DNA of 56,160 bases from a candidate division WOR-3 bacterium (lineage in GTDB: Bacteria > Hydrothermota > Hydrothermia > B15-G9 > WFZT01). The notes below the pieces were generated by a model, which did no database searches, was not told the DNA's origin, and worked only from the letters and a program-made list of their open reading frames with translations. This document shows positions 25,970-50,044 of the stretch, one piece after another (positions within the stretch are counted from its first letter, which is position 1; every line of letters starts with the position of its first letter). A program made the position numbers and the translations under genes. The stretch is from assembly GCA_027053075.1 (NCBI GenBank), contig JALUEE010000017.1, forward strand, positions 1 through 56,160. The letters run 5' to 3'.

Positions 25970-25977
25970 ATTAATAC

Positions 25978-28662: not shown

Positions 28663-28678
28663 CAAAAGGAGGAACGAG

Positions 28679-30067
28679 ATGAAAGAGGTTCGCGTGAGAT
28701 TCGCCCCTTCACCAACCGGATACCTTCATGTTGGAGGTGCAAGAACGGCACTCTACAACTGGCTTTTTGCCCGAAACAGGGGTGGCAAATTTCTTTTAAG
28801 AATAGAAAACACCGACGTAAAGCGATCGAGCAAGGAGATGGAAGAGTATATTAAAGAGGCCATGCTCTGGCTTGGATTAAACTGGGACGAAGATATCGTA
28901 TATCAGCTTGACAGGCTTGAAATTTACAGAAAGTATGCAAATGAGCTGATTGAAAAGGGACTTGCATATTATTGCTACACTCCACCTGAGGAGCTTAATA
29001 AAGAGGGTGGTGGTGTGGAGTGTTTTGAGGTAAATCCTGACGAATACAGGGATAAGCCCCTCGCCATTAAATTCAGGGTTCCCAACGAGGGGACAACTGA
29101 GTTTGACGATATCATTAGAGGCCACATAACTTTTCAGAATAAAGACCACGGGGACTTTGTGATAGTTCGCTCAGACGGCATTCCCACGTACAATTTTGCC
29201 GTGGTAGTGGACGACCACTACATGGGAATAACGCACGTCATCCGGGGTGAAGACCACATCCCGAATACGCCAAAGCAGATACTGGTTTATCGGGCATTTG
29301 GCTGGGATGTTCCAGAATTTGCGCATCTGCCCATGATTTTAGGGCCTGACAAGAAACGCCTTTCTAAAAGGCATGGAGCAACATCGGTTCTGGAATATCG
29401 GGACATCGGAATTCTGCCCGAGGCACTTTTCAACTTTCTTGCCCTGCTTGGATGGTCACCTGGTGATAACCGTGAGATAGTGCCAAAAGAGGAAATGATA
29501 AAGCTCTTTGACCTGAAGCGGGTTGGTAAGAGGGCAGCGGTATTTGATCTCGATAAACTCTACTGGATCAACTCCGAGTACATCAGGATGAAGAGTGATG
29601 AGGAGCTTTATGAGCTCGCACTGCCATTTGTAGAAAAGGCAGGACTGGTTAAAACAGAAGCAGACCGTGAAAAGTTCAGGAAGGTCGTGCCGCTCCTAAA
29701 GGAGCGTGTAAAACTCCTTCGTGATTTTGTGGACCTTTCGGAATACTTTTTCCGCGATGTTGAGTCCTACGACGAGAAGGGTGTGAAGAAGCACTTTAAG
29801 GCTGGGGTTGAAGAGAGATTAAAGCTTCTTGTGGAGAGGCTGGAAAAACTTGATAGGTTTGATGAAAAGAGCATCGAGGAAGTCGTAAGGTCACTTGCTG
29901 ATGAGCTCGGGGTGAGTGCTGCGAAGATAATTCATCCCACGCGTCTTGCAGTTACGGGACGTACATTTGGCCCTGGCCTTTTTGAGCTCATGGCCGTCCT
30001 CGGAAAGGACGAGTGCATCAAACGCCTCAAACACGCCATCAAATGGCTTGAGGAAAGAAAATCCTGA
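28679..30067 (+). CDS. gltX: Glutamate-tRNA ligase
   Basis: RFAPSPTGYLHVGG, VIRGEDH, KRLSKR. Confidence 0.96.
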   Translation: MKEVRVRFAPSPTGYLHVGGARTALYNWLFARNRGGKFLLRIENTDVKRSSKEMEEYIKEAMLWLGLNWDEDIVYQLDRLEIYRKYANELIEKGLAYYCYTPPEELNKEGGGVECFEVNPDEYRDKPLAIKFRVPNEGTTEFDDIIRGHITFQNKDHGDFVIVRSDGIPTYNFAVVVDDHYMGITHVIRGEDHIPNTPKQILVYRAFGWDVPEFAHLPMILGPDKKRLSKRHGATSVLEYRDIGILPEALFNFLALLGWSPGDNREIVPKEEMIKLFDLKRVGKRAAVFDLDKLYWINSEYIRMKSDEELYELALPFVEKAGLVKTEADREKFRKVVPLLKERVKLLRDFVDLSEYFFRDVESYDEKGVKKHFKAGVEERLKLLVERLEKLDRFDEKSIEEVVRSLADELGVSAAKIIHPTRLAVTGRTFGPGLFELMAVLGKDECIKRLKHAIKWLEERKS

Positions 30068-30607
30068 GGATTTGATGGAAGGATTTAGGGGGTGGGGGAG
30101 ACTCAGGGCCTCTGACAGACCCATAGGATAATGAGGTTCAGATTGCCCATTTTGGGGTAGCAGGTGAATTTATGGTCTCGAATAAACCTCATGAGACCAT
30201 GTGGTTAGTTTAAGAATATTACCCATGCATTGCTCAGGAGAAGGCTCTAACCACCGTATGAAGCTTGTTCAAGCCTTATTCTTCAAGAACTTCCTTGTCT
30301 TCGTCAAAAATAATCTACCCTTTATGAAGGACTACCTCCCAATATACTTATACTTATTTCCTGACAAAAATACCTTTTTGGTACAGGAAAGCATCCAAAA
30401 AACAGAATACAAATATCCTCGACGAATTTTTCAAGTTCATGGAAATACATAAGCTACCTACCAAGAAAACATGGCAAAAGGGTTGAGGTGTTGTTCTTAG
30501 ATAGGTGGTGGGGTAAGATAAGAAGAATACCACCTTTTAAGTTTCAACATATTTCAGGACCTGATGTAGAAAACCTGATTTAAATTTAGTGATTTTTAGG
30601 TGAGGGA

Positions 30608-30907
30608 TTAATCCTGGTGGGGGCCAAGAATGAAAGATTTGATACTTTCCTGAATGTCTTCCAGTTTCTCTGGATTCAACTTGTAATAGGAGAAATTTTT
30701 AACCCTCCTTTTTACCACCAGACCTGTGCGCCACAGTATCCCCAGGTGTGCAGAGCAAACTGAGTGGGATATGCCCATCGCCTTTGCAATCTCGTTTACT
30801 GTCTTATATTCATGTGCGATAAACCTGAGGATTTTAAGGCGGGTAATATGGCCAAGGGCTTTGGTGTAAAGCTCTGTTCGTTTTTGTTTTTCGGTATAAG
30901 TTATCAT
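30608..30907 (-). CDS. ArsR/SmtB family transcriptional regulator
   Basis: KALGHITRLKIL, TVNEIA..MGISHSVCSAHL..L..GLV...R....YY; ATG 30907 is the likely start. Confidence 0.85.
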   Translation of the reverse strand: MITYTEKQKRTELYTKALGHITRLKILRFIAHEYKTVNEIAKAMGISHSVCSAHLGILWRTGLVVKRRVKNFSYYKLNPEKLEDIQESIKSFILGPHQD

Positions 30908-30919
30908 CGTGAAATCAAT

Positions 30920-30956
30920 GAGGGGTGGGGCGCCGCGGAGCGGCGCCCCACCCCTC
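30920..30956. terminator. Strong 17-bp hairpin between the SPW gene and the ArsR gene
   Basis: GAGGGGTGGGGCGCCGC-GGA-GCGGCGCCCCACCCCTC. Confidence 0.6.
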
Positions 30957-30963
30957 CTTCTTT

Positions 30964-31287
30964 TTAAGCCTCTTTTGGTTTCATCAGCGCTGCCCAGATT
31001 CCGAAGATAACCACAAGTATCCCTGTGATGATGTCGTTCCACATATTACCAGACTTACTACCAACTATGGACGGGATGAACGCAGCTATTATGAGCCAGA
31101 TTCCGAGAATCACGTTTATCCACTCAGGCCACCTGGACTTTGCCACCCAGGCCGCGAAGATGAGAATGAGTATACCTACGATAAGGTCATTCCAGAGCGA
31201 GCCACTCTTGCTCGCTGTTATAGATGGTATGAATCCGGCGATGATGAGCCAGATACCAAGTATGACATTCAACCAATCTTGCCACAT
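30964..31287 (-). CDS. SPW repeat membrane protein (two tandem repeats)
   Basis: W.NVILGIWLIIA.FIPSI..SKSG..WND...GIL duplicated; GGAGG RBS. Confidence 0.8.
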   Translation of the reverse strand: MWQDWLNVILGIWLIIAGFIPSITASKSGSLWNDLIVGILILIFAAWVAKSRWPEWINVILGIWLIIAAFIPSIVGSKSGNMWNDIITGILVVIFGIWAALMKPKEA

Positions 31288-31934
31288 AGCTTTACCTCCT
31301 TTTTAAAGATTATTTTATGTTTGTCTATTTAAATATTGGTGTATTTTCTAAAACTTGTCAAGGGGGTATCGGTCTTTCTCAAAAAATACTACCTTTTCCC
31401 TTCCTTGCCTAAGTACTTCGCCCATGGAAACGGGAAACAGCCACGATCCCTCTTTTCAAAGGAGGGACAAAATTTTTTTTTCAACTAATTTCAAGACAAA
31501 AGTTTGCCTCTCCCCTATGATATGATTACTAAGATTCCGGAATGGTATGTTAAAAAGCAAATCAAACTTAATGGAGTAAAGGCAAATTCATTTCCTCTCA
31601 TCACACTGCATGCCGGAAACGGGCAGTAGAAGGAATTTCTTCTTTTTTAACGATTTCTATCAAGGTTACATTAATTGTGTTCAAAAATTCTCAAACACAA
31701 AAGGCACCTTTCCCTTGGAAATACTTATGGGGAGTGATTGTAATGAGGGACTATATATGCCAAATTCTTCGTTTGGAATGAGTCTATCAAACTCTCCTGG
31801 AGACAAAAATGTTTCTTAATTTTTAAGCGTAATGCTTTCATCTACTTGCAGAGCAATCGGGAAAAACTTAGAACCAGTTGTCTCGCAAATATAGATTATA
31901 GAGAATGGATCCTTAAAAACAGGCCCTGCTGTAT

Positions 31935-31963
31935 TTGACACCTAAACAATGCAGGGATAAAAT
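31935..31963 (+). promoter_or_regulatory. Sigma70 promoter, likely for a leaderless transcript
   Basis: TTGACA-N17-TAAAAT; ATG 6 nt downstream; no SD. Confidence 0.75.
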
Positions 31964-31969
31964 ATTGTT

Positions 31970-32332
31970 ATGGTTACGCTGATGCTATTAATATCATTAC
32001 TTGGCTCGCCGGTTAACATTCCGGTGAATAGTGTGAGACCATCCGTGGCACGGGTGAGTTACCTCAAGCCCAGCAGATTTGAATTTTTCACCTACATGGA
32101 TTCCCATGGAAATATGCTCACTGGCAACCAATTTAGCTTCAATTACGGCAAAAATCTCAGAATTGGATGGGGGATATTAAACTACTCAAGAATTACGGAT
32201 AGACTAAAATTTGGCACTACATTTGGGATTCTATCCCTCGAGTATTCGAAAGATATCTGGGGTGGAAAGATTAAGATAGGCTATCAGCAGAGCTTCCCCT
32301 TACAGAGACGGGACTTATTCTGGAAAAACTAA
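31970..32332 (+). CDS. Hypothetical exported beta-strand-rich protein
   Basis: Short hydrophobic N-terminus; alternating aromatic/polar strands; own promoter; abuts next gene. Confidence 0.65.
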   Translation: MVTLMLLISLLGSPVNIPVNSVRPSVARVSYLKPSRFEFFTYMDSHGNMLTGNQFSFNYGKNLRIGWGILNYSRITDRLKFGTTFGILSLEYSKDIWGGKIKIGYQQSFPLQRRDLFWKN

Positions 32333-32791
32333 ATGTCTTCCTACAAACAACTGCAGGAGGAGATTCTTGCTGCATTCGGAGGAGCTCGAGACCTACAGTT
32401 GCTGAGTTTATTGGTTTATGGTGAGGCTCGTGGCGAAAGTCTCGATGGAAAAGCCGGCGTGGCATGGGTTGCAATCAACCGCAAGAATAGAGGAGGATGG
32501 TTTGGGAATTCCCTAAAACAAGTGATCCTGAAACCTTACCAGTTTAGCTGTTTTCTTCCTGGCGATCCGAACTTTAATATCCTTCTTAATATACTTGAGA
32601 ATTTTGACGACCGTATTAAAAGTGATCCTGTGTTTCGGGAGTGCTATTACATCGCAAAGGGGGTTATGGATGGCTGGATACGGGATGTTACACGTGGAGC
32701 CCTGTACTACCACTCAAAGGCTATCTCGCCGGGCTGGGCAAACACCTACAGTCGCAAGGCAGAGATAGGTAACCACGTTTTCTACGGATAG
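32333..32791 (+). CDS. Cell wall hydrolase, SleB/Hydrolase_2 family
   Basis: VYGEARGE, VAWVAINR, PYQFSC, GALYYH, IGNHVFY. Confidence 0.9.
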   Translation: MSSYKQLQEEILAAFGGARDLQLLSLLVYGEARGESLDGKAGVAWVAINRKNRGGWFGNSLKQVILKPYQFSCFLPGDPNFNILLNILENFDDRIKSDPVFRECYYIAKGVMDGWIRDVTRGALYYHSKAISPGWANTYSRKAEIGNHVFYG

Positions 32792-34180
32792 GTGCAGCAG
32801 TACAAAACTCCTGCATTCGTCGTATTTATATGCTTTTCCACCGGAATCATTCTCGGATTCCTCAAAAGTCCGGTCTTTGCCATTTTTTCTTTTATTGCAA
32901 TAAGTCTACTGCTCGTCTATCTAAGAATTTTCCCCTACATAATCCTCGTCATTCTGGGCTTTACTTATGTAAAAATCGATCTTAAAAAACTGAGAAATAG
33001 TGCTGAACTTGTTCCCTTCGCCCAAAAGGTGAGAGTTTCAGGACATATTGAAAATGAAAAATTCATCCGTGTGAATGAGATAGAAACCATTCATGATGTA
33101 AGAAGGATAAAAACGAAGTTTTTCATAAGAAATGCACCGGACATTGAATGTGGAAAAGTTACCATCTCCGGTGTCATCCGAAGGCCAAAGGGTAGTTTCC
33201 GGATTTATCTGCTCTCAAATAAAGCAAATGGAGTTCTAAAATTGCTGTATCTTAAGAGAATTCCCACCAGAAAATGCGCTCCTCGTGATTACATAAGGAA
33301 AGTTTTAAAGAGAAACTCTTGGGATATAGAGAATTTTTCCATCATGAGAGCACTCGTTCTCGGTGAAAGAATTGGTTTGTCAAAAGGTACTTTAGAACTC
33401 TTTAAAAGAACCGGAACCATGCATATTTTGGCACTTTCTGGGCTACATGTGGGGATCATAACCCTGATAATATTTGCGCTTTTCTCTCTATTTCGGATCG
33501 AGAAACGAATAGCCCTGATTGCAACTGGAGTCACCTTGACCCTCTATCTGTCTCTTATCGGATTTAAATCCTCACTGCTTCGTGCCTATCTGTTTTTCCT
33601 GGCAATCATTATAGCGAAGCTTTCAGAGAGAAAGGTAAGATACTTGAATATTTGGGGGTTCGCCGGATTTTTGTCCCTTGTTTATAACCCTCTATGGATT
33701 TTAAATGTTGGATTCCAGTTTTCATACATCACCACACTTGGGATAATTCTTACTATCATTCCCCGACTCAAGGGCATCAAAGGATATATCATTACAAGTC
33801 TTCTTACCTCTCTCGCGGCGACCCTGTTTGTTTCACCACTACAGATATACTACTTCAAGTTATTTACACCAGTATCAGTTCTCTCAAACCTCGTTGCGAT
33901 CCCCCTTGTTTTTGTCATACTTTCAGAAGTTCTTGTTGGGATTTTATTGAGTTTTCTGCACGCTGGTGTTATTGCTCAACTGTTCTTTGAGGTTGCAAAT
34001 CTCGCGATCAAGATTCTCCTTGGATTTCTAAAAGTTATCCTTCATCTCGGACTCAGTTATAGATTCGAAGAATCACCCATAAACGCCTACCAGGCTCTGG
34101 TATTAATTGCCTTTCTGGTAGTATTTACTATGGGTGTAAGAAGAGTGGTTACGGAGATAAAGAAACCAGATGAGGGATAA
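32792..34180 (+). CDS. comEC: ComEC/Rec2 competence membrane protein (no metallo-beta-lactamase domain)
   Basis: ALVLGER, TGTMHILALSGLHV, LLRA, GFQFSY, SNLVAIP. Confidence 0.88.
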   Translation: MQQYKTPAFVVFICFSTGIILGFLKSPVFAIFSFIAISLLLVYLRIFPYIILVILGFTYVKIDLKKLRNSAELVPFAQKVRVSGHIENEKFIRVNEIETIHDVRRIKTKFFIRNAPDIECGKVTISGVIRRPKGSFRIYLLSNKANGVLKLLYLKRIPTRKCAPRDYIRKVLKRNSWDIENFSIMRALVLGERIGLSKGTLELFKRTGTMHILALSGLHVGIITLIIFALFSLFRIEKRIALIATGVTLTLYLSLIGFKSSLLRAYLFFLAIIIAKLSERKVRYLNIWGFAGFLSLVYNPLWILNVGFQFSYITTLGIILTIIPRLKGIKGYIITSLLTSLAATLFVSPLQIYYFKLFTPVSVLSNLVAIPLVFVILSEVLVGILLSFLHAGVIAQLFFEVANLAIKILLGFLKVILHLGLSYRFEESPINAYQALVLIAFLVVFTMGVRRVVTEIKKPDEG

Positions 34181-35002
34181 TATCATGAGCGCAATGGCAA
34201 TAACGTGTGCCATTTTAACCCCATAAAGTTTCCATGTATCGAATCTCAAAAATTCCACCCAGAATCTCCCAAAGGAGTAAAGCCCAAGATATCCAAAAAA
34301 TATGTCACCATCTTTTTTCCTGCGCGACGATTTAAACTTTAGAAGCAGGAAAAATACAAAGAAATCCCAGAGAGATTCATAAAGGAATGTGGGATGATAA
34401 TAGGCATAATGCGCGTATTTTTCGAACCTGTACTGCGGAGGAATGTACATCTTCCAGGGTAGATTCGTTGGAACACCATATGCCTCGTGATTGAAAAAGT
34501 TACCCCATCTTCCGAGGGCCTGGCCAAATATTAACCATGGAGAAACTATATCCGCCAGTAGCAAGAAAGGCATTTTATAAACGCGACAAAGTATGTATCC
34601 CACGAGCAATCCACCGATTACCCCTCCATAAATCCCCAATCCTCCGTGCCAGGTTTTGATTATTTCACCGGGATGATACCTGTAATAATCCCAAGACGAA
34701 AACACGTGATACATTCTCGCACCGACAAAGGCTGCAATGGAAGACCAGAAAATGATTTTATCGAAGTCATCCACACTCAGTCCGTATTTTTTTACATCCC
34801 GGTGGGCAAAGATAAGGCCTATTACGAAGGAAACTGCTATGAAGAAGCTATACCACTTTATTCCAAAATTTCCTATGTGAACGAGATAAGGAGAAACATC
34901 CCTTGCGCCGATAAACACCTCATGGACAAAATAAACGAACCATATAAAAAATACTGCAATAGCAAGTCCTATAAAGATGTAAAAGTACTTCCTGAAGTTC
35001 AT
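34103..35002 (-). CDS. lgt: Prolipoprotein diacylglyceryl transferase
   Basis: GARMYHV, WHGGLGIYGG, QALGRWGNFFN.EAYG, HPTFLYES, RFWVEFLR. Confidence 0.95.
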   Translation of the reverse strand: MNFRKYFYIFIGLAIAVFFIWFVYFVHEVFIGARDVSPYLVHIGNFGIKWYSFFIAVSFVIGLIFAHRDVKKYGLSVDDFDKIIFWSSIAAFVGARMYHVFSSWDYYRYHPGEIIKTWHGGLGIYGGVIGGLLVGYILCRVYKMPFLLLADIVSPWLIFGQALGRWGNFFNHEAYGVPTNLPWKMYIPPQYRFEKYAHYAYYHPTFLYESLWDFFVFFLLLKFKSSRRKKDGDIFFGYLGLYSFGRFWVEFLRFDTWKLYGVKMAHVIAIALMILSLIWFLYLRNHSSYTHSKYYQKGN

Positions 35003-36075
35003 AGAGCTTTTTCAAGGAAAATTTTAAATATGTCGTAAAGCTGGTGAAGAGATTTAATGCTTACCCACTCATCTTTACCATGAATATTGCCTCCTACAGG
35101 GTATGTAACAATACTTGGAATTCCTTTCTCTGCGAAGAATCTACCATCAGTTGCTCCATGCTCCACACTAAACTCAGCTTTTCTTCCAAGAACTTCTTCA
35201 ACAGATTCCTTGAATTTCTGCACCATGGGGTGATCTTCAGGCGTAGAAACTACTTCGCCGTATGAGCGAAGTTCAACTTTCACCCTGTCTCCAGCTTTCT
35301 CAAGGACGTACGCGTGCATCTTGGACACAGTCCAGGGTTCAACAAACCTAATATCCAGTTCCATTTCTGCTTTGTCCGGGACAATATTTGCGGCTTCACC
35401 ACCTTTTAGAACTCCAAGATTAATGGTATTGTGCCAATGCTGTGGATCCCCACAGGGTTCTTTCGGAAAATCTTTTTTAAGGTCTTCGTAAAAATCAATA
35501 AGTTTATCCAGAGCGTTTATTCCTTCCCATGGACGAGAACCATGTGTAGAGGCACCAACAGCCTCAACATGGAAATGGGCTACCCCTTTACCTTTAATGA
35601 TTATACTAAAATTTTCCCCTCCATCCGGTATAACAGCGAAATCAGCGGAGTAATTTTGTTCTTTAAGGAGAAATTCCACACCGTCCCGGGAGCCAACTTC
35701 TTCATCAGTAGTTAGCATCAAAGATATCGGGAGATCTGACCCTTTGAGGTCTTTAAATAATTTAATCATAACGGCATCAGGGCCTTTCATATCGAGTGCC
35801 CCTCTACCGAACAGCTTATCGTTTTCAACAACTGGGTGGAACTGTATCTCATCTGCCTCTACAACGTCAAGGTGACCGACAAACATAATCTTATGATGTT
35901 TACCGGGTGAAAAAGATACCACCATGGAATGTTTCCCATTCCTCTCAAATCTTTCTTTTATAAAACCATCACCCAGATACGCATCAACAAAATCCACAAT
36001 ATTTTTAAGTTCTTCTGGATGTTCTCTGGTGGATTCAAACTCTATAAGTTTTTTGGTAAGCTCAACAAGATCCAT
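34999..36075 (-). CDS. M20 family metallopeptidase (ArgE/DapE-like)
   Basis: GHLDVV, GRGALDMKG, DEEVG, HGSRPW.G.NA, GATDGR, IHGKDE. Confidence 0.92.
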   Translation of the reverse strand: MDLVELTKKLIEFESTREHPEELKNIVDFVDAYLGDGFIKERFERNGKHSMVVSFSPGKHHKIMFVGHLDVVEADEIQFHPVVENDKLFGRGALDMKGPDAVMIKLFKDLKGSDLPISLMLTTDEEVGSRDGVEFLLKEQNYSADFAVIPDGGENFSIIIKGKGVAHFHVEAVGASTHGSRPWEGINALDKLIDFYEDLKKDFPKEPCGDPQHWHNTINLGVLKGGEAANIVPDKAEMELDIRFVEPWTVSKMHAYVLEKAGDRVKVELRSYGEVVSTPEDHPMVQKFKESVEEVLGRKAEFSVEHGATDGRFFAEKGIPSIVTYPVGGNIHGKDEWVSIKSLHQLYDIFKIFLEKAL

Positions 36076-36206
36076 TTTAACACCTCCTTTCGCATATTAT
36101 CAAATTCGCTCAGAGTATTATCAAGACGGGGCACAAGAAAACATATTGAGTTTTTACGAAATTTCAGTATCCCAATGGCAAACTATACTTCTGCCTGGAG
36201 AGAAAG

Positions 36207-36325
36207 TGTAACATTTTGTTACAGATTATTCAGTGTAACATTTTGTTACAGTTACATCCCGGGGGAATCAATTTTCGCAAAATTGGATTTTTCTTTTGTA
36301 TTACTGTAACATTTTGTTACAGTAA
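36207..36325. promoter_or_regulatory. Three identical 17-bp palindromic operator/enhancer sites
   Basis: TGTAACA-TTT-TGTTACA at 36207, 36234 and 36305; the third extends to TTACTGTAACATTTTGTTACAGTAA (36301-36325). Confidence 0.85.
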
Positions 36326-36384
36326 GCTCCACAGTTTTTAATAAAGTCTTTATAAGCTGTGCTAACTCCGGAACTTATGTGTTG

Positions 36385-36400
36385 TGGAAGCAAAATTGCA
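36385..36400 (+). promoter_or_regulatory. Sigma54-type -24/-12 promoter
   Basis: TGGAAGCAAAATTGCA: GG-N10-GC with TTGCA; 40 nt before the lipoprotein ATG. Confidence 0.6.
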
Positions 36401-36440
36401 TATTATAAAAACGTAAAAACTTTAAAAGGAGGTAAAAGTC

Positions 36441-36983
36441 ATGAAGAAGGTAGTCGCATCCATAATTGCCGTTGCCATGGTCCTGGTCCTGGCGAACGGC
36501 TGCAGCACTGTAGGGCAAACCACATATAAGGGGTTCAACAGTGTAAAGGCCTTCAAAATAGTAAACGCACCCGCGGCTAAGAGCAGTCTCCACTTTGAAA
36601 AGACCTTAACGCCAGGTCAGGGTGGTGTCGTATCAGGTTCTTACAACATTGGGAATGTGCAGGTAACATACACGGTGACTGTCCCAGCCGGTGCACTTCA
36701 CAACACAGAGACAGTAACTATTGATATTCCAGATGTCACAGAAGCAAGAGAGGACCTTGGTCCATCTCCTTACACATTCAACAAGCCGGTAACGGTAACA
36801 ATGTCCTTCAAAAATCTTCCCAACGTCCCTGATCCGTCCGATATTCAGGTTGCATGGTTTGACGCAAATGCAGGTGAGTGGATAGTGGTTCCTTCTACTG
36901 CAACTGTAAGCGGAAACGACCTTACTGTGACCTACAGAACCAGCCACTTTACCTACTGGATTATCATTGACCCCGACGAATAA
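36441..36983 (+). CDS. Lipoprotein with ZU5-like domain ending in an HFT motif
   Basis: Lipobox LANG-C21; GQGGVV, VPAGAL, LGP..TFNKPVTVTM, W, SHFTYW; AAAGGAGG RBS. Confidence 0.75.
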   Translation: MKKVVASIIAVAMVLVLANGCSTVGQTTYKGFNSVKAFKIVNAPAAKSSLHFEKTLTPGQGGVVSGSYNIGNVQVTYTVTVPAGALHNTETVTIDIPDVTEAREDLGPSPYTFNKPVTVTMSFKNLPNVPDPSDIQVAWFDANAGEWIVVPSTATVSGNDLTVTYRTSHFTYWIIIDPDE

Positions 36984-37012
36984 ACCTATAAAACCACCTG
37001 GGTGGTCTAGTC

Positions 37013-37216
37013 ATGGAAGCTGTCATGAAGGATATCAATTGGAACGACGAAATAGGAATTCTGGGGCGAGATAAGGACCTAATCATTTGGATATATGATT
37101 CCCTGAGTTCAGCATGGGGATTAAGCTCTAATCATCAATCCAGCACCGGAGGCATAAACAGTACGATATTTGACAAAGAGGCTCTGGATATATTTAAGGA
37201 GGAGATGAAATTATGA
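37013..37216 (+). CDS. Small hypothetical protein
   Basis: Fills the gap between the lipoprotein and TPR genes on the same strand; no motif recognised. Confidence 0.45.
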   Translation: MEAVMKDINWNDEIGILGRDKDLIIWIYDSLSSAWGLSSNHQSSTGGINSTIFDKEALDIFKEEMKL

Positions 37217-37230
37217 AAGGGGTGTAAAAT

Positions 37231-38328
37231 ATGTATAAAGACGGAAATATAGGATTTCATATAACAGAACTGTACAAAAAAGCGCTCGAGATAATCCCAT
37301 TTGACAAGCAGGTAGAGTTATCTGTAGAAACGGCTGAGATATTCCTGAGCATAGGCGAAATTCGAAAAGCAGAAGAAACTGTGCAAAAAATTGTATCTAG
37401 TAGTGAATTTCCTAAACTCCCGGCTAATTTAAGATATACGGTATTCAACAAATTATTCAAAATTTACTATAAGTCAGGGAATTACGTAAAAGCTGAAGAT
37501 ACTCTGAAGAAACTACTCGAGATTTCAAAAGATATTAAGGATGAAAACCTATTATGCAATATCTATGTAAAATTTGGTAATGTTTACGCCCGAAAACGCG
37601 ACTTTGAAAAAGCCAAAGAGTTTTACACCAAAGCTGTTGAGATAGGAGAGCAAACGGATGGTGCAAGAAGATGTTTGGCCTCCGCCTACAACAACATTGC
37701 TGTGTACTATATTTTAGTTAACAACGATTCCGACCGCGCATTGATATATTTCCAGAAAGCTCTATCACTATATGAGTCCGAATCCAACAATATAAGTATT
37801 ATTGCCCGAATAATTCTGAACCTTGGTAACCTATTTAAAACCAAAGGATACTACGAAAAAGCCCAAGACTATTATCAAAGAGCACACTCATTCGCAATTA
37901 AACACCATCTATTAGACATATTGGCCAATGTCTACCACGAGAAATCCGAAATATTTTTTGCAATAGAGGAATACGAACTTAGCGAAATATTTATAAAGAA
38001 AGCGCTTGAGCTTCATAAAGCACTGAATGGGCGAGAAGGTGATTATAGAGCAGGTCAGGCATTCGAATTACTTGCGAAAATTGAGGAGAAAAAGGGTGGT
38101 AGCATCGAGAGAATCCGGGAATATGTCCACGAAGCAATTGGCTATTATACCAAAAGCGAGTCGTGGGACGATGCAATAAAACTATATGATTTTCTTGGAG
38201 ACGTCGCTTATAAGCGGGGAGTTTACTCTATATCTAAAGAATCATACGAGAATGGACTAATATTCGCCCAAAAATACGGTATTGAGGAGTATAAACAAAA
38301 ATTACAAGATAAGTTGAGACTTTTATGA
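37231..38328 (+). CDS. Tetratricopeptide repeat protein (no output domain)
   Basis: Repeated TPR signatures (FGNVY..KAKEFYTKA, YNNIAVYY..ALIYFQKA, NLGNLF..AQDYYQRA). Confidence 0.85.
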   Translation: MYKDGNIGFHITELYKKALEIIPFDKQVELSVETAEIFLSIGEIRKAEETVQKIVSSSEFPKLPANLRYTVFNKLFKIYYKSGNYVKAEDTLKKLLEISKDIKDENLLCNIYVKFGNVYARKRDFEKAKEFYTKAVEIGEQTDGARRCLASAYNNIAVYYILVNNDSDRALIYFQKALSLYESESNNISIIARIILNLGNLFKTKGYYEKAQDYYQRAHSFAIKHHLLDILANVYHEKSEIFFAIEEYELSEIFIKKALELHKALNGREGDYRAGQAFELLAKIEEKKGGSIERIREYVHEAIGYYTKSESWDDAIKLYDFLGDVAYKRGVYSISKESYENGLIFAQKYGIEEYKQKLQDKLRLL

Positions 38329-39998
38329 AAGTTAATTCGGATGATGCGATAGAGCACTGTTACAAGAACACTGAAGGCAAAAGTGAAGGTGAACTCGTGC
38401 GCTGCTTGGAAAAGGAGGTAAAGAGTGCGGAGCGATCTGGAGATAGAGAGAAGGAACTCGGAATACTCCTGAAAATAGCTAATATATTGATTCAACGGGG
38501 TGAAATTAGGAAATCAGTGAGTTACATAGAGACTGTTCGAAACAGAATTGAGAACTTAAAAGATGGCGAGTATAAAGCGAGAATGTGCTTGCGGTTAGGT
38601 AGATTATATCAAGAAATTGAACGGTACGATAAAGCGCTCTTCTTTTACAGAGAAGCTGAGAACCTGCTAACTCCCTATGACTCCAAGAACATTGAAGCCA
38701 ATAAGTTACTAATAAATATAAAAAATAACAAAGCTGTGATATTTCTATTTCAAGGAAACGTTGAAGAAGCCATAAGGCAGTTAGAGGGGGTGGTTTTAAT
38801 TTATGAAAACTCTACATTTAAAACCGTTAAAGAAACCAAAATATATATATCCGCATTGGCAAACCTCGGCAATATCTATCACGAACTAAACAACTCCAAC
38901 AAAGCCTTATATTACTTCGAGAAAGCAAAAGAAAAACTTTCAGATTTAGTAATCTCTAACAAGGACGTAATTGGTAAAAAGGTCGCCTTTGGGGTCTATA
39001 TAAACCTATCCCACCTTTACGTTCACGAAAGAAAATTGGAATCTGCCAAAAGGCTGTTAAAATTGGCGAGAAAGAATTTCCCACCTAATTACAGATTATC
39101 TAAAATTCATTATCTAATCGTACTATCAAAATTCTGGATGGAAAAAGGTAATTATGATCATGCAGTTAAAATTCTACAAAAAGCTCAAAAGCTCGGGAAT
39201 GAAACCAAACACGAATACGTAGAAGGTCTCATTCTAAATGAATTAGGTATATTTTATAAAACCATCGGGGATTATCAAAATGCTCTAATCAATCTCATTA
39301 AAGCGAGAAATTTCTTCCAGAAAATAAAATTCTATAAAGCACGCGTAAAAAATACAATTGACGAGATCGAAGGTAATTTCATAAAAATTGCTTCGCAGTG
39401 GGGGGCAAAGGTTGAGCTTAAGGATCCGTATACGCTCGGACATTCTGCGAGGACCACCTACTATGCATTTCTTATCGGTAAAAGACTACTGGATGATGAG
39501 CTCTCACTTAAGGGGCTTTTAATAGGAGGCTTCCTCCACGACATAGGCAAACTCAAAATCGACGATAAAATCCTTTTGAAACGCGGAAAATTGACTCCGG
39601 AAGAAAGAAAAGAGATCGAAAAACACCCTGTTTACGCAATTGAGCAGCTTAAAAATATCGAATTCCCTTGGAAAAATGTGAAGGACTGCATTCTGTACCA
39701 TCATGAAAAGTATAATGGGACAGGATATCCTGAAGGTTTAAAAGGAGAGCAAATACCATTGTGTGCAAGAATTATAGCTGTGGCCGACGTTTTCGATGCC
39801 CTCACCACTGATAGACCTTACCGTTCAGCACTTTCCTGGCAGGAGGCTCTGAGTTTCATTCAGGAAAACAAAGGAAAATATTTTGACCCAGTTGTAGTAG
39901 ATACCTTTGCAGAAATCCTTGAGAAACTTGATAAAAGCCTCATAAGCACCCAACACACAAAACACATGGTTGAAGAGCTATGGAGATTTTTCGCTTAA
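38325..39998 (+). CDS. TPR-domain HD-GYP cyclic-dinucleotide phosphodiesterase
   Basis: N-terminal TPRs; KDPYTLGHS, LHDIGK, KHP, HHEKYNGTGYP, ADVFDALTTDRPYR; ATGA overlap with the TPR gene. Confidence 0.9.
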   Translation: MKVNSDDAIEHCYKNTEGKSEGELVRCLEKEVKSAERSGDREKELGILLKIANILIQRGEIRKSVSYIETVRNRIENLKDGEYKARMCLRLGRLYQEIERYDKALFFYREAENLLTPYDSKNIEANKLLINIKNNKAVIFLFQGNVEEAIRQLEGVVLIYENSTFKTVKETKIYISALANLGNIYHELNNSNKALYYFEKAKEKLSDLVISNKDVIGKKVAFGVYINLSHLYVHERKLESAKRLLKLARKNFPPNYRLSKIHYLIVLSKFWMEKGNYDHAVKILQKAQKLGNETKHEYVEGLILNELGIFYKTIGDYQNALINLIKARNFFQKIKFYKARVKNTIDEIEGNFIKIASQWGAKVELKDPYTLGHSARTTYYAFLIGKRLLDDELSLKGLLIGGFLHDIGKLKIDDKILLKRGKLTPEERKEIEKHPVYAIEQLKNIEFPWKNVKDCILYHHEKYNGTGYPEGLKGEQIPLCARIIAVADVFDALTTDRPYRSALSWQEALSFIQENKGKYFDPVVVDTFAEILEKLDKSLISTQHTKHMVEELWRFFA

Positions 39999-42098
39999 GT
40001 AAGAGAGAAGAGTATACCTCTTCATCGGTTTGACGTTCTTTACTGCTATTTGGATTGCCCTGGGGTGGGCGAAGAGGGTTAAAACCCTCTTCGCCCTTGT
40101 TATTGCTGTATAAAACCAATTCCTGTGTAAAAACACATAGTGTGAGAGACTCATCACCAGTAGAGCAACATCAAATTCTGACCCCTGAGCCTTATGGACT
40201 GTTAACGCATATGCATGATCTGTCTCATCCCTCAATTCCTCAAAGGTGTATTCTATAAATCTTTCGCCATCTCCGTCTTCAAATCTGACAATGGCCATCC
40301 CATTCTCTTTGTCTATGGAATAGATCTCACCAATTTCACCATTGAAAACCACTCTTTCATAGTCATTTACAATCTGTATAATGCGATCACCCTCACGAAA
40401 GACTCGCTCCCCAATTTGCACCTCTACTTTATCACTCGCTGGAGGATTCAAAAGCCCCTGGGCAATAAAGTTTAAATTCTTCGTTCCCAAAATACCCCGT
40501 CTCTGCGGGGTAATGAGCTGAATTTGATTACCAAAATAAACTATCGCCCTCTTCAGAGGCTCTACAAAATCCTCATTTTTCTCAAAATACTTCACAATAA
40601 AATCCTCATTGTTGACGATCTCGGGTAGTTTCCCTTCACGAATATTTCTCGCATTCAGTGCAATTGAAGAGCCTGGACCCTGACGATAGACATGTTTAAG
40701 AGTAACAGAAGGAAATTCCATATTAAGAAGGTCTGTCAGAAGATTCCCCGGTCCTATACTCGGTAGCTGGGCCGGGTCTCCAACAAGCACAACCCTCGCG
40801 TGGAAAGGAAGCGCACTTAGCAACCTGTAAAACAAAGGCATTGAAACCATCGAAACCTCGTCTACTAAAACCGCATCCACACTCAAAGGATTATCAGCGT
40901 TAAACTCATACCTCTCGCCATTAAATTTTAGAAGTCTATGAATGGTCTTTGCCTTGCGACCCGTGAGTTCATGCAACCTCTTCGCGGCCTTACCTGTTGG
41001 TGCACAAATTTCATATCTAAATCCAAGCTCATCCCATAAATCAAGAATGATTTTTGATAAAAGACTCTTACCTGTACCCGCATATCCCGTAATGAGAGAA
41101 AAGTTATAAAAGTAAGGCAGAATTGCCCCCTCAATCTGTTCCGTTGAGAGTGATACTCCGTATCTCTCCCTTGCCAGAGCTGCCACCTTTTCCCGCACTC
41201 TGGCCATATCGTCATCCGTCGGTGGCGATTCTGTTTCTTTAAACAATTCCAACCTCTGGAAAATATAATTTGCCATTGAATAGAAAGATTTAAGGGCGAT
41301 AATGTTGCCTTCCAGAAATATTTTTCCATTTTTTGCAAGCTCTGCGATAGCTCGGTCAACGAGTTCGTAATTCTCAATCTTCAAATTCCTCATTGATTCG
41401 AAAAAAGTATCCATTGGTAGGTACGTGTGACCACTTTCTGCTGCCTGCTCGAGCACGTATATCACTGCGGCCCTGATGCGTCTTGGATCTTCGGGCTTCA
41501 CTCCAATTTGCTGAGCAAGATTGTCTGCCTTTTTAAAACCTATACCCCAGATTTCCGTAAGAACGTATGGATTCTCCTCAAGAATCTCCTTTGTTTTATC
41601 TCCATACTCCTTATAAATCTTAAGGGCCATCTTTGGGGTTATTCCGAGGCCGGTGAGATATGAGAGGGCCCTTCCTGAAAATCTGTGAACTTCCCACGAG
41701 GATTTAATGAGATTCAGCGTCTTTTCACCTATACCCGGCACTTCTTTTAGCCTATCAGGATCATAGTCAAGAATCTCGATGAGTTTTTTTACCCCAAATT
41801 GCCTAACAAGCTGATTGGCCTTCTTAAACCCCAATCCTTTAATAAAGCCCGCAAGAAAATTGACAAAACCCGCCTCCGAATCTGGCATGGTTACTTCATA
41901 AGAGTTGGCAAAGAAATAAGGGCCGTATTTCCTGCTATTTTTCCATTCCCCTTTGAAGATATATTCAGTATCCAGGGCAACTTCATCAAAAAAACCAGCT
42001 ACTCTAACATACCCTTTGTTAGTCTTAACATCTAAAACTGTGTAACCATCGGGGGATTTGTAAATCACATAAACCACTTTGCCTCTTAACGCTTCCAT
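39978..42098 (-). CDS. recD2: ATP-dependent RecD2 (SF1B) DNA helicase
   Basis: HhH motifs, ENPYVL..GIGFKKAD, GYAGTGKS, APTGKAA, TIHRLL, DEVSM, GDPAQLPSIGPG, TVHKAQGSEF, YTAITRA. Confidence 0.93.
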   Translation of the reverse strand: MEALRGKVVYVIYKSPDGYTVLDVKTNKGYVRVAGFFDEVALDTEYIFKGEWKNSRKYGPYFFANSYEVTMPDSEAGFVNFLAGFIKGLGFKKANQLVRQFGVKKLIEILDYDPDRLKEVPGIGEKTLNLIKSSWEVHRFSGRALSYLTGLGITPKMALKIYKEYGDKTKEILEENPYVLTEIWGIGFKKADNLAQQIGVKPEDPRRIRAAVIYVLEQAAESGHTYLPMDTFFESMRNLKIENYELVDRAIAELAKNGKIFLEGNIIALKSFYSMANYIFQRLELFKETESPPTDDDMARVREKVAALARERYGVSLSTEQIEGAILPYFYNFSLITGYAGTGKSLLSKIILDLWDELGFRYEICAPTGKAAKRLHELTGRKAKTIHRLLKFNGERYEFNADNPLSVDAVLVDEVSMVSMPLFYRLLSALPFHARVVLVGDPAQLPSIGPGNLLTDLLNMEFPSVTLKHVYRQGPGSSIALNARNIREGKLPEIVNNEDFIVKYFEKNEDFVEPLKRAIVYFGNQIQLITPQRRGILGTKNLNFIAQGLLNPPASDKVEVQIGERVFREGDRIIQIVNDYERVVFNGEIGEIYSIDKENGMAIVRFEDGDGERFIEYTFEELRDETDHAYALTVHKAQGSEFDVALLVMSLSHYVFLHRNWFYTAITRAKRVLTLFAHPRAIQIAVKNVKPMKRYTLLSYLSEKSP

Positions 42099-42194
42099 CG
42101 GGTTCAAAAATACAGAATGCCAGAAAGAATGGCAACCCTCGACATATCAACGGCGATTGATTAATATTTTACCATTATCGCAAGGAGTAAAGAG

Positions 42195-42533
42195 ATGGCT
42201 CTGATTAGAAACTATAAAGAGGTACTCGAGCAAAAAGTAAATGAGGGAAAAGGTGTAAGAGTAAGATGGCTCATATCAAAGCCAGAAGGCGCTCCAAACT
42301 TCGCGATGAGGCTGTTTACGGTGGAACCGGGCGGCTATACCCCCTTCCACTCCCACCCCTGGGAACACGAGGTCTTCATATTGAATGGAGAAGGTGAGCT
42401 GGTAGGTGAAAACGATACCATGCCATTCAAAGAGGGGGATGCGATATTCGTTAAACCCCTTGAGTATCATCAATTTAAAAACACAGGAGACGATGATCTG
42501 AGGTTTATCTGTGTGATCCCGATTATAGATTAG
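42195..42533 (+). CDS. Cupin domain protein
   Basis: FAMRLF.VEPGG.TP.HSHPWEHE, HQFKN. Confidence 0.9.
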   Translation: MALIRNYKEVLEQKVNEGKGVRVRWLISKPEGAPNFAMRLFTVEPGGYTPFHSHPWEHEVFILNGEGELVGENDTMPFKEGDAIFVKPLEYHQFKNTGDDDLRFICVIPIID

Positions 42534-43098
42534 TTCCCTTACTGCTCCCGGGTTTTACAAGAGGTACTCCAGCCCTGCAAAGCGGGCATTCTTCAGGTTT
42601 GTAATTTTTAACTTTAACTCGCAAAAGCGAAACCAATGGAACTCCTGCATTAAAATTTTCACTCCTGTCTACGAACACAAATGCCCCCACAATCTTTGCT
42701 CCAAATGGTTTTATGGCTTCGAAGGTTTCAAGCAACGATTTTCCGGTTGTTAAAACATCATCGACCACGAGTACCCTATCTTCGGGCTTGAGCTTGAAAC
42801 CCCGCCTTAATACTCTTCCTCCACTCTCTCCTCTCTCCGCATAATACGCCTTTACTCCCAGTTGACGGGCCACCTCAAAGGCAACAGCAACTCCGCCTAT
42901 GGTTGGTCCCACCACAACATCCGGAGAAAACTCTCTCAGTTTATCTATCACCGTTGATATTAATCTCTCTGTCAGACGCGGGTCCTCAAGGATGCGAAAC
43001 TTCTCAAAATATGTATCTGAATGCAAACCTGAGGTAAGCAGAAAATGCCCCTTTAGGATGGCTCCTCTTTCGATTAAAATCTTCTCGACGTCTATCAT
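42523..43098 (-). CDS. pyrE: Orotate phosphoribosyltransferase
   Basis: GHFLLTSGLHS, VLVVDDVLTTGKS, CPLC..KPGS. Confidence 0.93.
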   Translation of the reverse strand: MIDVEKILIERGAILKGHFLLTSGLHSDTYFEKFRILEDPRLTERLISTVIDKLREFSPDVVVGPTIGGVAVAFEVARQLGVKAYYAERGESGGRVLRRGFKLKPEDRVLVVDDVLTTGKSLLETFEAIKPFGAKIVGAFVFVDRSENFNAGVPLVSLLRVKVKNYKPEECPLCRAGVPLVKPGSSKGTNL

Positions 43099-43325
43099 TC
43101 TAATTTAACAAACAGACTGGACTCGCCTGTGGCTTTGTTTAGCTCCTCCATCAATTTATCGATATCCTTAACCCCGTACTTTTCAGCATTCTCTCCGATG
43201 GTTCCCCATAACGGCTCACCACACACGAGAGCGGGAATCCCAAATTTTATCATAACTTTAATGGTTTGAGGCCATCGAGTTATAACTTCTTCGACAGTCA
43301 TTTCTGGCGTTATTTTCTTTTCCAT
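43095..43325 (-). CDS. DUF1858 domain protein
   Basis: ITPEMTVEEVI..WP..F, C, LMEELN; TTGACC-N18-TATAAT-N7-ATG. Confidence 0.8.
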   Translation of the reverse strand: MEKKITPEMTVEEVITRWPQTIKVMIKFGIPALVCGEPLWGTIGENAEKYGVKDIDKLMEELNKATGESSLFVKLE

Positions 43326-43361
43326 GCCAATCATTATAATCTTTCAAAGTTAAACAGGTCA

Positions 43362-43511
43362 AACAGACGAGAGCGCATTCGGAAATGTTCCCCTCTCCCA
43401 TCCTCCCCCCACGCACAAAGTGCGTGGGGGGAGGAAATAGGTGGGGGGATTCATATTAAAATTCCAAATAAATTGAAATTTTTCGAACAGGCTCAACAAA
43501 CGAGAGCGCAT
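43362..43511. mobile_element. MITE-like element with family-2 hairpin, imperfect terminal inverted repeats and flanking 17-bp direct repeat
   Basis: GAGCGCATTCGGAAA (43371) ... TTTTCGAACAGGCTC (43480-43494); stem 43401-43435 identical to 18132-18166; AACA[G/A]ACGAGAGCGCAT at 43362 and 43495. Confidence 0.55.
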
Positions 43512-43702
43512 CGCTTCATCTGAAATTTCTTCCATCAAACTTTTAAATGTTTATCAAAAGCATCCAATATCATGCCAGGCTTCTTGTTTTAAATTTCGAC
43601 CGCAATATTCGGAATCATCTTTGATGTAAATTTATGGATATTTCTAAATTTGAAATTTTTACACCAATCCGTTATATTGAGGGCCAAAAAGGAGGTATCA
43701 TT

Positions 43703-44509
43703 ATGGTGGAGAAATTGCAACTTCTCTCCGGACTTGCCATATCCTACAGTTTGAAGCTCCTGGGGGCTATTGCTATATTCATCATTGGGAAATGGATTTC
43801 CAGAAAGATAGCAAATCTGACAGAATCGATGCTTGAAAAGAGCAAAACCGATGTAACATTGAGGTCATTCCTCGGCAACGTAATTTATGCAATCCTTTTG
43901 ATTATAGTGATAATAATGGCTCTCGGAACACTGGGAATTCAGACAACGTCTTTTGTAGCCGTTCTTGGAGCTGCAACTCTGGCTGTCGGCCTCGCCCTCC
44001 AGAGCAATCTGTCAAATTTCGGTGCTGGGGTTATGATTCTCTTGCTCAGACCGTTCAAAGTGGGAGATGCAGTTGAAGCGGGCGGTGCCACTGGAATCGT
44101 AGAGAGTATCGGTATTTTCAGCACAAAGATTAAAACGTTCGACAACAAAGTGGTAATTGTGCCCAACTCAAGCATAATCAGCTCAAATATCACAAATTAT
44201 TCCGAAAAAGACACACGCAGAATTGACCTCGTCATAGGCGTCGGTTACGATGACGACCTCAAAAAGGTTAAAGATGAACTGTGGAGCATCTTGAACGAGG
44301 ATGAAAGAATTCTAAAGGACCCAGCGCCTACAGTGGCCGTATCCGAGCTTGCCGATAGTAGTGTAAATTTTGTTGTGAGACCCTGGGTTAAAACATCTGA
44401 CTACTGGGCCGTGTATTTTGACCTGCTTGAGAAGATTAAAACGAGATTTGATGAGAAGGGAATCAACATCCCGTATCCCCAGTTGGATGTGCACCTGGCG
44501 AAAGAATGA
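43703..44509 (+). CDS. mscS: Small-conductance mechanosensitive channel
   Basis: AVGLALQSNLSNFGAG, RPFKVGD, IVPNS, INIPYPQ; GGAGG RBS. Confidence 0.94.
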   Translation: MVEKLQLLSGLAISYSLKLLGAIAIFIIGKWISRKIANLTESMLEKSKTDVTLRSFLGNVIYAILLIIVIIMALGTLGIQTTSFVAVLGAATLAVGLALQSNLSNFGAGVMILLLRPFKVGDAVEAGGATGIVESIGIFSTKIKTFDNKVVIVPNSSIISSNITNYSEKDTRRIDLVIGVGYDDDLKKVKDELWSILNEDERILKDPAPTVAVSELADSSVNFVVRPWVKTSDYWAVYFDLLEKIKTRFDEKGINIPYPQLDVHLAKE

Positions 44510-44571
44510 GAATCAGTCGTTTCCACTCGTCTAAAACTTGATTTATCAAACAACAGTTAATGATGAAGTAA

Positions 44572-44614
44572 TGAGGGGGGCGGGCGATTTTGAAAAAATC
44601 GCCCGCCCCCCTCA
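44572..44614. terminator. 20-bp perfect hairpin after mscS
   Basis: TGAGGGGGGCGGGCGATTTT-GAA-AAAATCGCCCGCCCCCCTCA. Confidence 0.65.
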
Positions 44615-44827
44615 AAATTCATTCAAACTCCCAAACCACTCACCCAGCAAGTGCCCGGTCAAAAAACAGGCAGCAACTCCTATAAAGTAAGTTTTAGGCC
44701 ACACACGAAGATTACCTTCCATATATGGCCCAGCGTTTAAAGCAGGTTTAATCATATTAGCACGAAAGAGTCATTGACATGTAATGATTCCCGATTTTAT
44801 CATCTATCAAAATTCCTGGAGGTTCCT

Positions 44828-45379
44828 ATGAACAACGTAAAAAAATCTTTAATATTTGGTCTCATAATTGGTGCTGTGATAGCCTTTGTGATCTCCCTCA
44901 TTGGGGCTCAGATCGTCCAATCAACCTCAAAACCTGAATTCTGCGCTTCGTGCCACGAGATGAAGCCCATGTACGAAACCTGGCTTAAGGGACCCCACGG
45001 TCCTCTCTACGAGAATGGTAGAGGCGTGGAGCGGGCAAGGTGCGTTGACTGCCATCTGCCTCACGGAACAAACGTAGTCAACTACCTCATTGCAAAGGGC
45101 ATAAGCGGAACAAAAGACTTTGTGGTTCATATCACAGGCCCCGGGAGAGTTGACTGGGAAAAGAAATTAGATGAGCCTCAGAAGTATGTTTACGTCAAAA
45201 GCTGCCTCCATTGTCATACAAATCTTACAGATGCCCCGGGTCTCAGCGACGATGCAAAAGAGGCCCACAAAGAGGCCTTTCAGGATACAAAATACCCCAA
45301 CTGTCTCGATTGCCACGATTACGCCGGACACGGGGAGGACTTCGCCGACAAACTACAGGAATACCTGAAGAAAAAATAA
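44828..45379 (+). CDS. NapC/NirT/NrfH family tetraheme cytochrome c
   Basis: N-terminal TM; CASCHEM, CVDCH, CLHCH, CLDCH; TTGACA-N18-TATCAT promoter at 44774 and GGAGG RBS. Confidence 0.92.
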   Translation: MNNVKKSLIFGLIIGAVIAFVISLIGAQIVQSTSKPEFCASCHEMKPMYETWLKGPHGPLYENGRGVERARCVDCHLPHGTNVVNYLIAKGISGTKDFVVHITGPGRVDWEKKLDEPQKYVYVKSCLHCHTNLTDAPGLSDDAKEAHKEAFQDTKYPNCLDCHDYAGHGEDFADKLQEYLKKK

Positions 45380-49063: not shown

Positions 49064-49204
49064 TTTTCAAAACCTCCCAATAGAATGGCAAAATTTTAAC
49101 CCAAAAGCACAAAATATTCATCCCAACATATGTTTGTTCTAAAAATCCCAAATTTATAGTCAACGAATTCACGCAATATAACAAATGATCGCAGACCGGT
49201 CGGT

Positions 49205-49560: not shown

Positions 49561-49703
49561 TGGAAGAGAAAGCTCTATCATATTTTATACCATATCTTTT
49601 AGGAGATGATATTCGGGCAGTAAAATGATCGACACGGTGGATTTGGTGTAAGCTCGAAATGTTGCACATTTGACTTCAAAAAATTTCACTAAAGGAGGTT
49701 AAA

Positions 49704-50012: not shown

Positions 50013-50019
50013 TTTAGGA

Positions 50020-50044
50020 GGGGGCTGCCCGAAGGGCAGCCCCC
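50020..50044. terminator. Hairpin between convergent genes
   Basis: GGGGGCTGCCC-GAA-GGGCAGCCCCC. Confidence 0.7.

Follow-up and report, generated by a model that had tools for sequence, protein, structure and literature searches.

Peptide signals of the RRNPP type (Rap-Phr, PlcR-PapR, ComR-ComS) come from precursors that are short propeptides cut by a separate protease. In the comQXP system, the receptor ComP is a membrane kinase and the ComX peptide is modified by ComQ. MAIN and GAIN domains cut themselves by an established chemistry, a His-activated N-to-O acyl shift at an HX(S/T) site. According to the text of PMC6334282, variants of comQ, comX, and the 5' end of comP in Bacillus subtilis go together as pherotypes, which live side by side on a local scale. 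The microbial GAIN-like MAIN domains, exemplified by B. subtilis YfkN (Brogan and Rudner, bioRxiv 10.64898/2026.05.12.724683), cut between the Phe and the Ser of an HFS motif in which Thr can replace Ser, and the resulting pieces stay bound to each other, being released only by SDS or at 95°C. In virtually all cases described there, the layout consists of a signal peptide, a cargo, the MAIN domain, and an anchor at the C-terminal end, with a mean size of 158 kDa. The main text of that paper reports no signaling by the C-terminal piece, and the terms "lipoprotein" and "TPR" have zero occurrences in it. A broader grouping, made in the text of PMC3482391, brings together ZU5, GPS, and Nup98 domains and places bacterial ZU5 domains in toxins and large surface proteins.

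A stand-alone predicted lipoprotein domain with a His-Phe-Thr site

The locus considered here belongs to a candidate division WOR-3 bacterium (assembly GCA_027053075.1, contig JALUEE010000017.1), whose genome is referred to as G000; "the window" denotes the whole stretch of 56,160 nucleotides that was analyzed. The protein under study, P0001, and the parts of it on which the argument turns are as follows.

36441-36983, plus strand: open reading frame of 180 aa, a predicted lipoprotein formed by a stand-alone domain of predicted ZU5/GAIN fold (MAIN-like) at about residues 45-180, with Cys21 as the predicted lipid anchor
36945-36953, plus strand: H169-F170-T171 (CAC-TTT-ACC), the predicted self-cleavage site between Phe and Thr, followed by YWIIIDPDE and the stop codon
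36951-36980, plus strand: decapeptide TYWIIIDPDE (1,264 Da, allele A), the released product predicted from sequence

The first-pass annotation had placed H169-F170-T171 10 residues from the end of the protein, which was confirmed in the sequence, and had pointed to ZU5-type motifs (GG, PAGAL, and GP..F.KPV), which are indeed present as G61-G62, P82-x-G-A-L, and G107-P108..F113-x-K-P-V. The HFT triplet, W173, and I175-I176-D177-P178-D179 are invariant in 9/9 sequences, that is, P0001 and its eight close homologs (72 to 96% identity). When read by eye, the leader consists of a hydrophobic stretch followed by L-A-N-G-C21. Since the -3 and -2 positions of this lipobox are non-canonical and the lipobox pattern gave no match, lipidation of P0001 is predicted by inspection only, though in the alignment at least 90% of 83 relatives retain a Cys at the position of C21.

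Taken alone, P0001 showed no Pfam match over the cut-off, ZU5 (PF00791) included, and no match to PDB sequences; what ties it to the ZU5/GAIN domains is the profile of its family together with its modeled fold. The profile was derived from alignment A2, which comprises 83 short sequences with a leader that were picked by hand (80 representatives along with P0001 and two of its close homologs) and leaves out fragments, C-anchored forms, P0036 (Gln for His), and P0136 (ending before the motif). It matches the ZU5 domains of ankyrin-2 (E 0.0013), ankyrin-1, and ZO-1, and Pfam ZU5 is detected at E≤0.01 in 13/83 A2 members, with a best value of 3.4e-4. The structure model built on A2 reached a pLDDT of 93.4 and a pTM of 0.82; a first model, built from 9 sequences, had a pLDDT of 62.8 and was set aside as poor. 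In the accepted model, strands 160-169 and 172-176 flank the site, so placed that the motif occupies the turn before the last strand, and the tail constitutes one strand of the sandwich. According to the MAIN paper, this turn is also where MAIN and GAIN domains undergo their cut.

Foldseek with this model returned an ankyrin ZU5 domain as the top match (E 9.4e-5). VIA-align over 48,161 chains gave ankyrin-B (Z 10.8, rmsd 2.6, 116 residues aligned), the GAIN domain of CD97 (Z 8.5, rmsd 3.3, 118 aligned), UNC5b (Z 8.4), the GAIN domain of BAI3 (Z 7.7), and the FIIND domains of CARD8 and NLRP1 (Z 5.2-5.9), and several glycosidase domains also reach Z 7.2-7.3. Neither Nup98 nor PIDD was among the fold matches listed by the two programs. 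The fold comparison that had been named at first pass was positive, with ZU5 first and GAIN next, and the modeled fold of P0001 is of the ZU5/GAIN-like class. A fold common to self-cutting domains does not by itself show cleavage in P0001. We deem the domain one of known kind in an inverted layout, with the predicted anchor at the N terminus and only the last strand able to leave; from the same anatomy follows the earlier proposal that the decapeptide is the only releasable product.

Homolog family and gene neighborhood

A phmmer scan with P0001 yielded 232 representatives at E≤0.001, and the counts reported here refer to the best 150 of these 232. According to a simple pattern, 83 of them have an H-x-S/T/C motif no more than 20 residues from the end; 46 extend beyond the motif (25 with a hydrophobic segment and 21 without), and 21 are unmatched by the pattern, although HFS can be seen close to the end in at least 10 of them. 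With 83 of the 150 listed representatives bearing it in this position, the motif goes beyond chance. In A2, the nucleophile position holds Ser in 69 sequences, Thr in 13, and Cys in 1 (83/83), versus a 17% background for these three residues, while the corresponding His count is biased because the sequences were chosen by hand. The A2 tails measure 6-18 aa (median, 9). Position 172 is variable across the whole family and may simply be exposed, and the C-terminal residues beyond the last strand are conserved by clade, as DPD, LSDH, or AGW. Family members were traced to KSB1 (one) and Eisenbacteria (one), and four of the phmmer hits of P0001 (P0096, P0111, P0112, and P0128) carry C-terminal SLH domains.

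The A2 profile matched 18/272 genomes of the phylum at E≤1e-12, among them 4 of this genus and G045 (from another class); in 5 others the stand-alone form lacks the motif, and in the remaining 8 the domain sits in a longer frame. A search of named genomes for related loci gave 1 locus, and the search around G045 covered 3 genomes. Clear homologs without any HF[ST] motif occur in five genomes of the same class.

L012:7019-7567, L013, L014:7052-7669, L046:14-535, and L047:7362-7883: motif-less lipoprotein homologs

A TPR gene or its start lies downstream in 4/5 of these loci, the contig ending in the fifth, so the association with TPR proteins needs no cleavage site of this kind. Three of the five also have a TPR-like gene upstream.

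The region preceding the lipoprotein gene contains four predicted regulatory elements.

36207-36223, no strand assigned: palindrome 1, TGTAAC-N5-GTTACA, predicted activator site
36234-36250, no strand assigned: palindrome 2, predicted activator site
36305-36321, no strand assigned: palindrome 3, predicted activator site
36385-36400, plus strand: predicted sigma-54 -24/-12 element, GG-N10-GC, located at -59 here and at -55 in G001

Apart from the three TGTAACATTTTGTTACA copies (36207, 36234, and 36305), the 2.44-Mb genome contains no exact match to the pattern; with up to one mismatch allowed, the window holds 4 matches versus 0.05 expected. The same three palindromes at the same spacing are present in G001, and we take them to resemble a TnrA/GlnR-type site. 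A loose sigma-54 pattern turns up 41 times in the genome, so the promoter is called from its position and its conservation. G000 encodes rpoN and 8 full sigma-54 activators, among which no clear ortholog of the activator adjacent to the lipoprotein gene in G045 was found (30-45% identity). No intrinsic terminator was found in 36000-37400. By eye, an inverted repeat, ACCACC-TG-GGTGGT, is visible at 36993-37006, just after the lipoprotein stop codon, and could stabilize the upstream message.

Behind the lipoprotein gene lie a spacer and two genes encoding TPR proteins.

37013-37216, plus strand: 67-codon open frame in the spacer, which may or may not be a gene, with no Pfam match
37231-38328, plus strand: TPR-only protein of 365 aa, candidate peptide receptor, matching TPR_12 (E 3.5e-24), with no signal peptide seen
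38325-39998, plus strand: TPR-HD-GYP protein of 557 aa, candidate receptor, matching HD_5 (E 1.2e-41) at residues 363-524 in addition to TPRs

The spacers of G000, G001, G003, and G004 each hold a frame of 65-80 codons, and no pair of these frames is similar beyond shuffled sequences. Between the TPR-only protein and its orthologs in G001, G003, G004, and G005, identity is 36-40%. General TPR families are alone among the best 25 of its 31 Pfam rows, and the Pfam search revealed no HTH in either TPR protein, the TPR-only protein being judged on those same best 25 of 31 rows. In the TPR-HD-GYP protein, the HD and GYP motifs are intact, and its HD-GYP half is predicted to act as a cyclic di-GMP (c-di-GMP) phosphodiesterase output. 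Lipoprotein, TPR, and TPR-HD-GYP genes are contiguous in G000, G003, and G004 and are split over two contigs in G001, and over the phylum the TPR-only gene is a more constant neighbor than the TPR-HD-GYP gene. No lipoprotein gene turned up in G005 (96% complete, with the TPR gene cut by a contig end) or in G002 (85% complete, with the flanking genes missing too). In G045, a TPR-HD-GYP gene directly precedes two tandem copies of the lipoprotein gene, and a sigma-54 activator gene precedes a third. The three copies (L044 and L045) have the tail SRYALSDH, and the one behind the activator has a His-Tyr-Ser variant of the site. On contig C40 of G000, one SBP_bac_5 gene with permease- and ATPase-like neighbors forms an Opp-type ABC operon. 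Elsewhere in the window, an 894-aa ORF (25978-28662, plus strand) reads by eye as a fusion of a Ser/Thr protein kinase domain with a UvrD/PcrA-type helicase, and a 566-aa ORF (53282-54982, minus strand) shows a P-loop near its start and presumably resembles a KAP-family NTPase.

Homologs with the AGW tail were collected from metagenomes with a tail DNA pattern that detects this clade only; it gave at least 123 stretches, and 79 loci were examined, the domain being present in 70/79. In this clade (L054-L132), a stand-alone MASE9-like membrane protein of ~240 aa is encoded behind 27/56 genes that have at least 300 bases downstream, corresponding to 14/29 clusters at 60% identity, and 29/56 genes have no MASE9-like gene directly behind. 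Pfam MASE9 was detected at E≤0.01 in 15/15 aligned members of the AGW neighbor protein. Among 101 AGW neighbors scanned, TPR matches occurred in 1 and HD-GYP matches in none. Tail type and neighbor type change together. L093 and L105 have the order lipoprotein, MASE9-like, lipoprotein. The passages on MASE9 in 10.1101/2021.11.05.467447 present it as an integral membrane sensor on HD-GYP and GGDEF proteins and name no ligand. A MASE9 receptor for P0001 itself was considered and rejected, no MASE9-like gene being present among the ATG-started ORFs of G000.

The allelic cassette

Over the window portion 25001-45000, the DNA of G004 is 93-96% identical over long stretches and 89% identical in the lipoprotein gene. 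The BLAST match has a gap at 36985-39292, though one G004 contig spans that part. The region concerned is the following.

36953-39410, no strand assigned: allelic cassette comprising the peptide codons, the spacer, the gene for the TPR-only protein, and the part of the TPR-HD-GYP gene that encodes the TPR half, with a GC content of 36.7% versus 41-48% in the flanks

DNA identity to G004 is 37-61% inside the cassette and 84-98% in fully aligned windows outside. At the protein level, G000 and G004 share 89% identity in the lipoprotein, 40% in the TPR-only protein, and 36% in the TPR half of the HD-GYP protein, compared with 99-100% in the HD-GYP half, 98% in RecD, and 99% in the M20 peptidase. 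Two other TPR-like proteins served as controls, and their identities in this genome pair are 97% and 95%. Only the G000-G004 comparison is anomalous, since unrelated TPR proteins of the genus are also just 42-49% identical across species. On contig C27 of G000 (45706-50036), three consecutive ORFs with near-identical TPR repeats are possibly one gene in pieces. Two other parts of the window stand out in the comparison with G004: a stretch of ~130 bases at about 43370-43500, which recurs more than 20 times at 76-88% identity on different G004 contigs, in the manner of a dispersed repeat or a miniature mobile element, and the regions at about 30600-31400 and 31000-32400, beside an ArsR-like and a small membrane ORF, where several more multi-contig matches point to a small duplicated or mobile region.

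The upstream edge of the block falls within the lipoprotein gene. Base differences between G000 and G004 number 35/366 in codons 49-170 and 9/30 in codons 171-180, a split at codon 171 for which Fisher's test gives a p of 0.003 with a boundary picked after the data were seen. The allele B tail, TAWIIIDPDD, differs from allele A in 2/10 residues. In the metagenome check, which took in 4 of the 13 runs listed, vent metagenomes from 4 studies distinct from the possible source study, both alleles were covered by contigs in 4/4, with some holes. In X2 and X3, the shared contigs stop at 36952 and the allele-A contigs begin at 36923, overlapping by 30 bases; in X10, one contig parts from allele B at the codon of T171 and continues with the A tail. 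The contigs fork at 36952/36953, and the alleles rejoin at about 39411; this is codon 363 of the gene for the HD-GYP protein, and the Pfam HD-GYP match begins with it. From the fork and rejoin points, the block runs from the first predicted peptide residue to the end of the last TPR.

Among the protein sequences, P0002 combines a 97% identical body with a B-like tail, and P0004 and P0006 combine bodies of 86% and 75% identity with A-like tails, so tail type does not track body identity. The peptide codons and the TPR regions vary between strains as one block and the domain body and the HD-GYP domain do not, in a mosaic based on two fully read alleles of one species-level group. The assemblies of G001, G003, G004, and G005 all break within or beside the module, as is expected where strains carry different alleles. 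This swap of alleles as a strain-specific cassette is the new result of our analysis.

A candidate self-maturing peptide signal and its relation to known systems

The fold, the His-Phe-Thr site, and the last ten codons co-varying with the repeat-protein genes together make it likely that the protein cuts off its tail, which would serve as a peptide signal for those proteins, and the promoter, the TPR and TPR-HD-GYP genes, and the allelic cassette suggest a likely purpose for it. According to the reading that we favor, and that we hold to be fairly probable, self-cleavage frees a strain-specific decapeptide signal for a cognate TPR protein controlling c-di-GMP turnover. The biochemical steps, each of which we infer from the anatomy and genetics observed above, would run as follows. 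The sigma-54-type promoter would drive lipoprotein expression under an activator, and the 180-aa precursor would be exported and lipidated. The domain would then cut itself between Phe170 and Thr171, and the last strand, TYWIIIDPDE, would be released on heat, unfolding, or proteolysis of its cage, routes that we propose because there is no cargo for force to pull on. The decapeptide might be imported by the Opp-type transporter and bound in a TPR groove as in RRNPP receptors, and the bound TPR protein would set HD-GYP activity, changing c-di-GMP hydrolysis. Counting against this scheme are the 2/10 peptide changes set beside ~60% TPR divergence, apparently more than a change of specificity would need, as well as the motif-less homologs with a TPR neighbor, the tight association of MAIN fragments, the 29/56 AGW genes without a sensor behind them, and the number of fully read alleles, which is just two.

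Several of these points lend themselves to a different account, the strongest of the rivals though in our judgment unlikely, in which the domain may cut itself with the strand staying caged, so that the whole lipoprotein acts at the envelope (in adhesion, as a contact tag, or with a membrane-protein partner) and the TPR genes are co-regulated and do not read the tail. It accommodates the continued association of MAIN fragments after the cut, the place of the tail in the sandwich of the model, and the retention of the TPR neighbor by motif-less homologs, as well as the fact that the closest solved folds are ankyrin ZU5 domains, which are not known to be self-cleaving. What it leaves unexplained is that the allele boundary falls at the codon of the first released residue, that conservation extends clade-wise beyond the strand (DPD, LSDH, AGW), and that the type of neighbor shifts with the type of tail.

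Still less probable, in our opinion, is a private role for the same parts and the same peptide, namely an envelope or temperature fuse in which the strand is dropped on unfolding and signals to its own cell only. The co-existence of signal and sensor alleles in one population is instead the pattern of social pherotypes, as described in the text of PMC6334282, and a private signal would have less reason to diversify, even if heat released the MAIN fragments, the DNA was found in runs labeled hydrothermal vent metagenome, the decapeptide has a hydrophobic core, and its precursor is tethered. We give the least credence to the idea that the spacer frame (37013-37216) rather than the decapeptide is the specificity partner of the TPR proteins, with the lipoprotein gene only a conserved recombination anchor and the tail codons riding at the block edge, since, although frames of 65-80 codons in all four genomes read are mutually dissimilar and fit the 60% TPR divergence better than two substitutions do, the frame is neither conserved nor matched in Pfam and shows no sign of translation, the frames after the G045 lipoproteins resemble each other without a counterpart here, and in the AGW-MASE9 clade the sensor gene lies directly behind the tail.

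Extended beyond this locus, the reading of the tail as a released signal would define a widespread and undescribed class of peptide signaling, to which we give an even chance, in which a stand-alone GAIN-like lipoprotein serves as its own maturation enzyme and cage, the strand becomes a free pheromone, TPR or TPR-HD-GYP proteins act as receptors in some clades and MASE9 membrane proteins in others, and, in this vent lineage, pherotype cassettes that exchange signal and receptor start exactly at the scissile codon. If true, this would provide a route to peptide signals without a separate protease in non-Firmicutes lineages, for which our literature search did not find RRNPP-like signaling; the same search, made among openly accessible papers, found none on such a system. 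It would also settle a point that the MAIN paper leaves open, namely whether bacteria can use the C-terminal strand as a signal, and would supply orphan TPR-HD-GYP and MASE9 sensors with ligands. With two natural alleles at hand, specificity could readily be tested by pairing both decapeptides with both receptor sets.

Compared with MAIN proteins, P0001 shares the GAIN-B-like sandwich in its model and an HX(S/T) motif placed in the turn that precedes the last strand; to judge from its hydrophobic leader, it may likewise be exported, and by sequence it reaches SLH-anchored HFS proteins of the MAIN layout. It differs in having no cargo, a predicted N-terminal anchor, a free C-terminal strand, and adjacent signaling genes. 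Its fold and profile matches to ankyrin ZU5, UNC5b, GAIN, and FIIND domains ally it with the ZU5 superfamily, but, unlike the bacterial ZU5 domains of polymorphic toxins as treated in the text of PMC3482391, it is a stand-alone 180-aa predicted lipoprotein. With the adhesion-GPCR tethered agonist (Stachel), it has in common that the strand after a GPS-type cut is the proposed ligand; this strand, however, is not fused to a receptor, the candidate receptor being a separate TPR protein or, in the AGW clade, a MASE9-like membrane protein.

The resemblance to comQXP lies in a variable block that spans the signal and the sensing part and spares a conserved output part, and in alleles that co-exist, although no homology is claimed and the candidate receptor here is a TPR protein. 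As in RRNPP systems, the gene for a predicted exported precursor stands beside a gene for a cytoplasmic TPR protein, a candidate Opp-type import system is encoded in the genome, and the predicted peptide is short and C-terminal. In contrast to those systems, the precursor is a folded 180-aa domain predicted to cleave itself and not a short unstructured propeptide, the predicted output is an HD-GYP domain, the promoter looks to be of the sigma-54 type, and no HTH was found on the TPR proteins. The P0001 system, as we propose it, is built from MAIN/ZU5 chemistry and RRNPP-like logic and is a member of neither group as defined.
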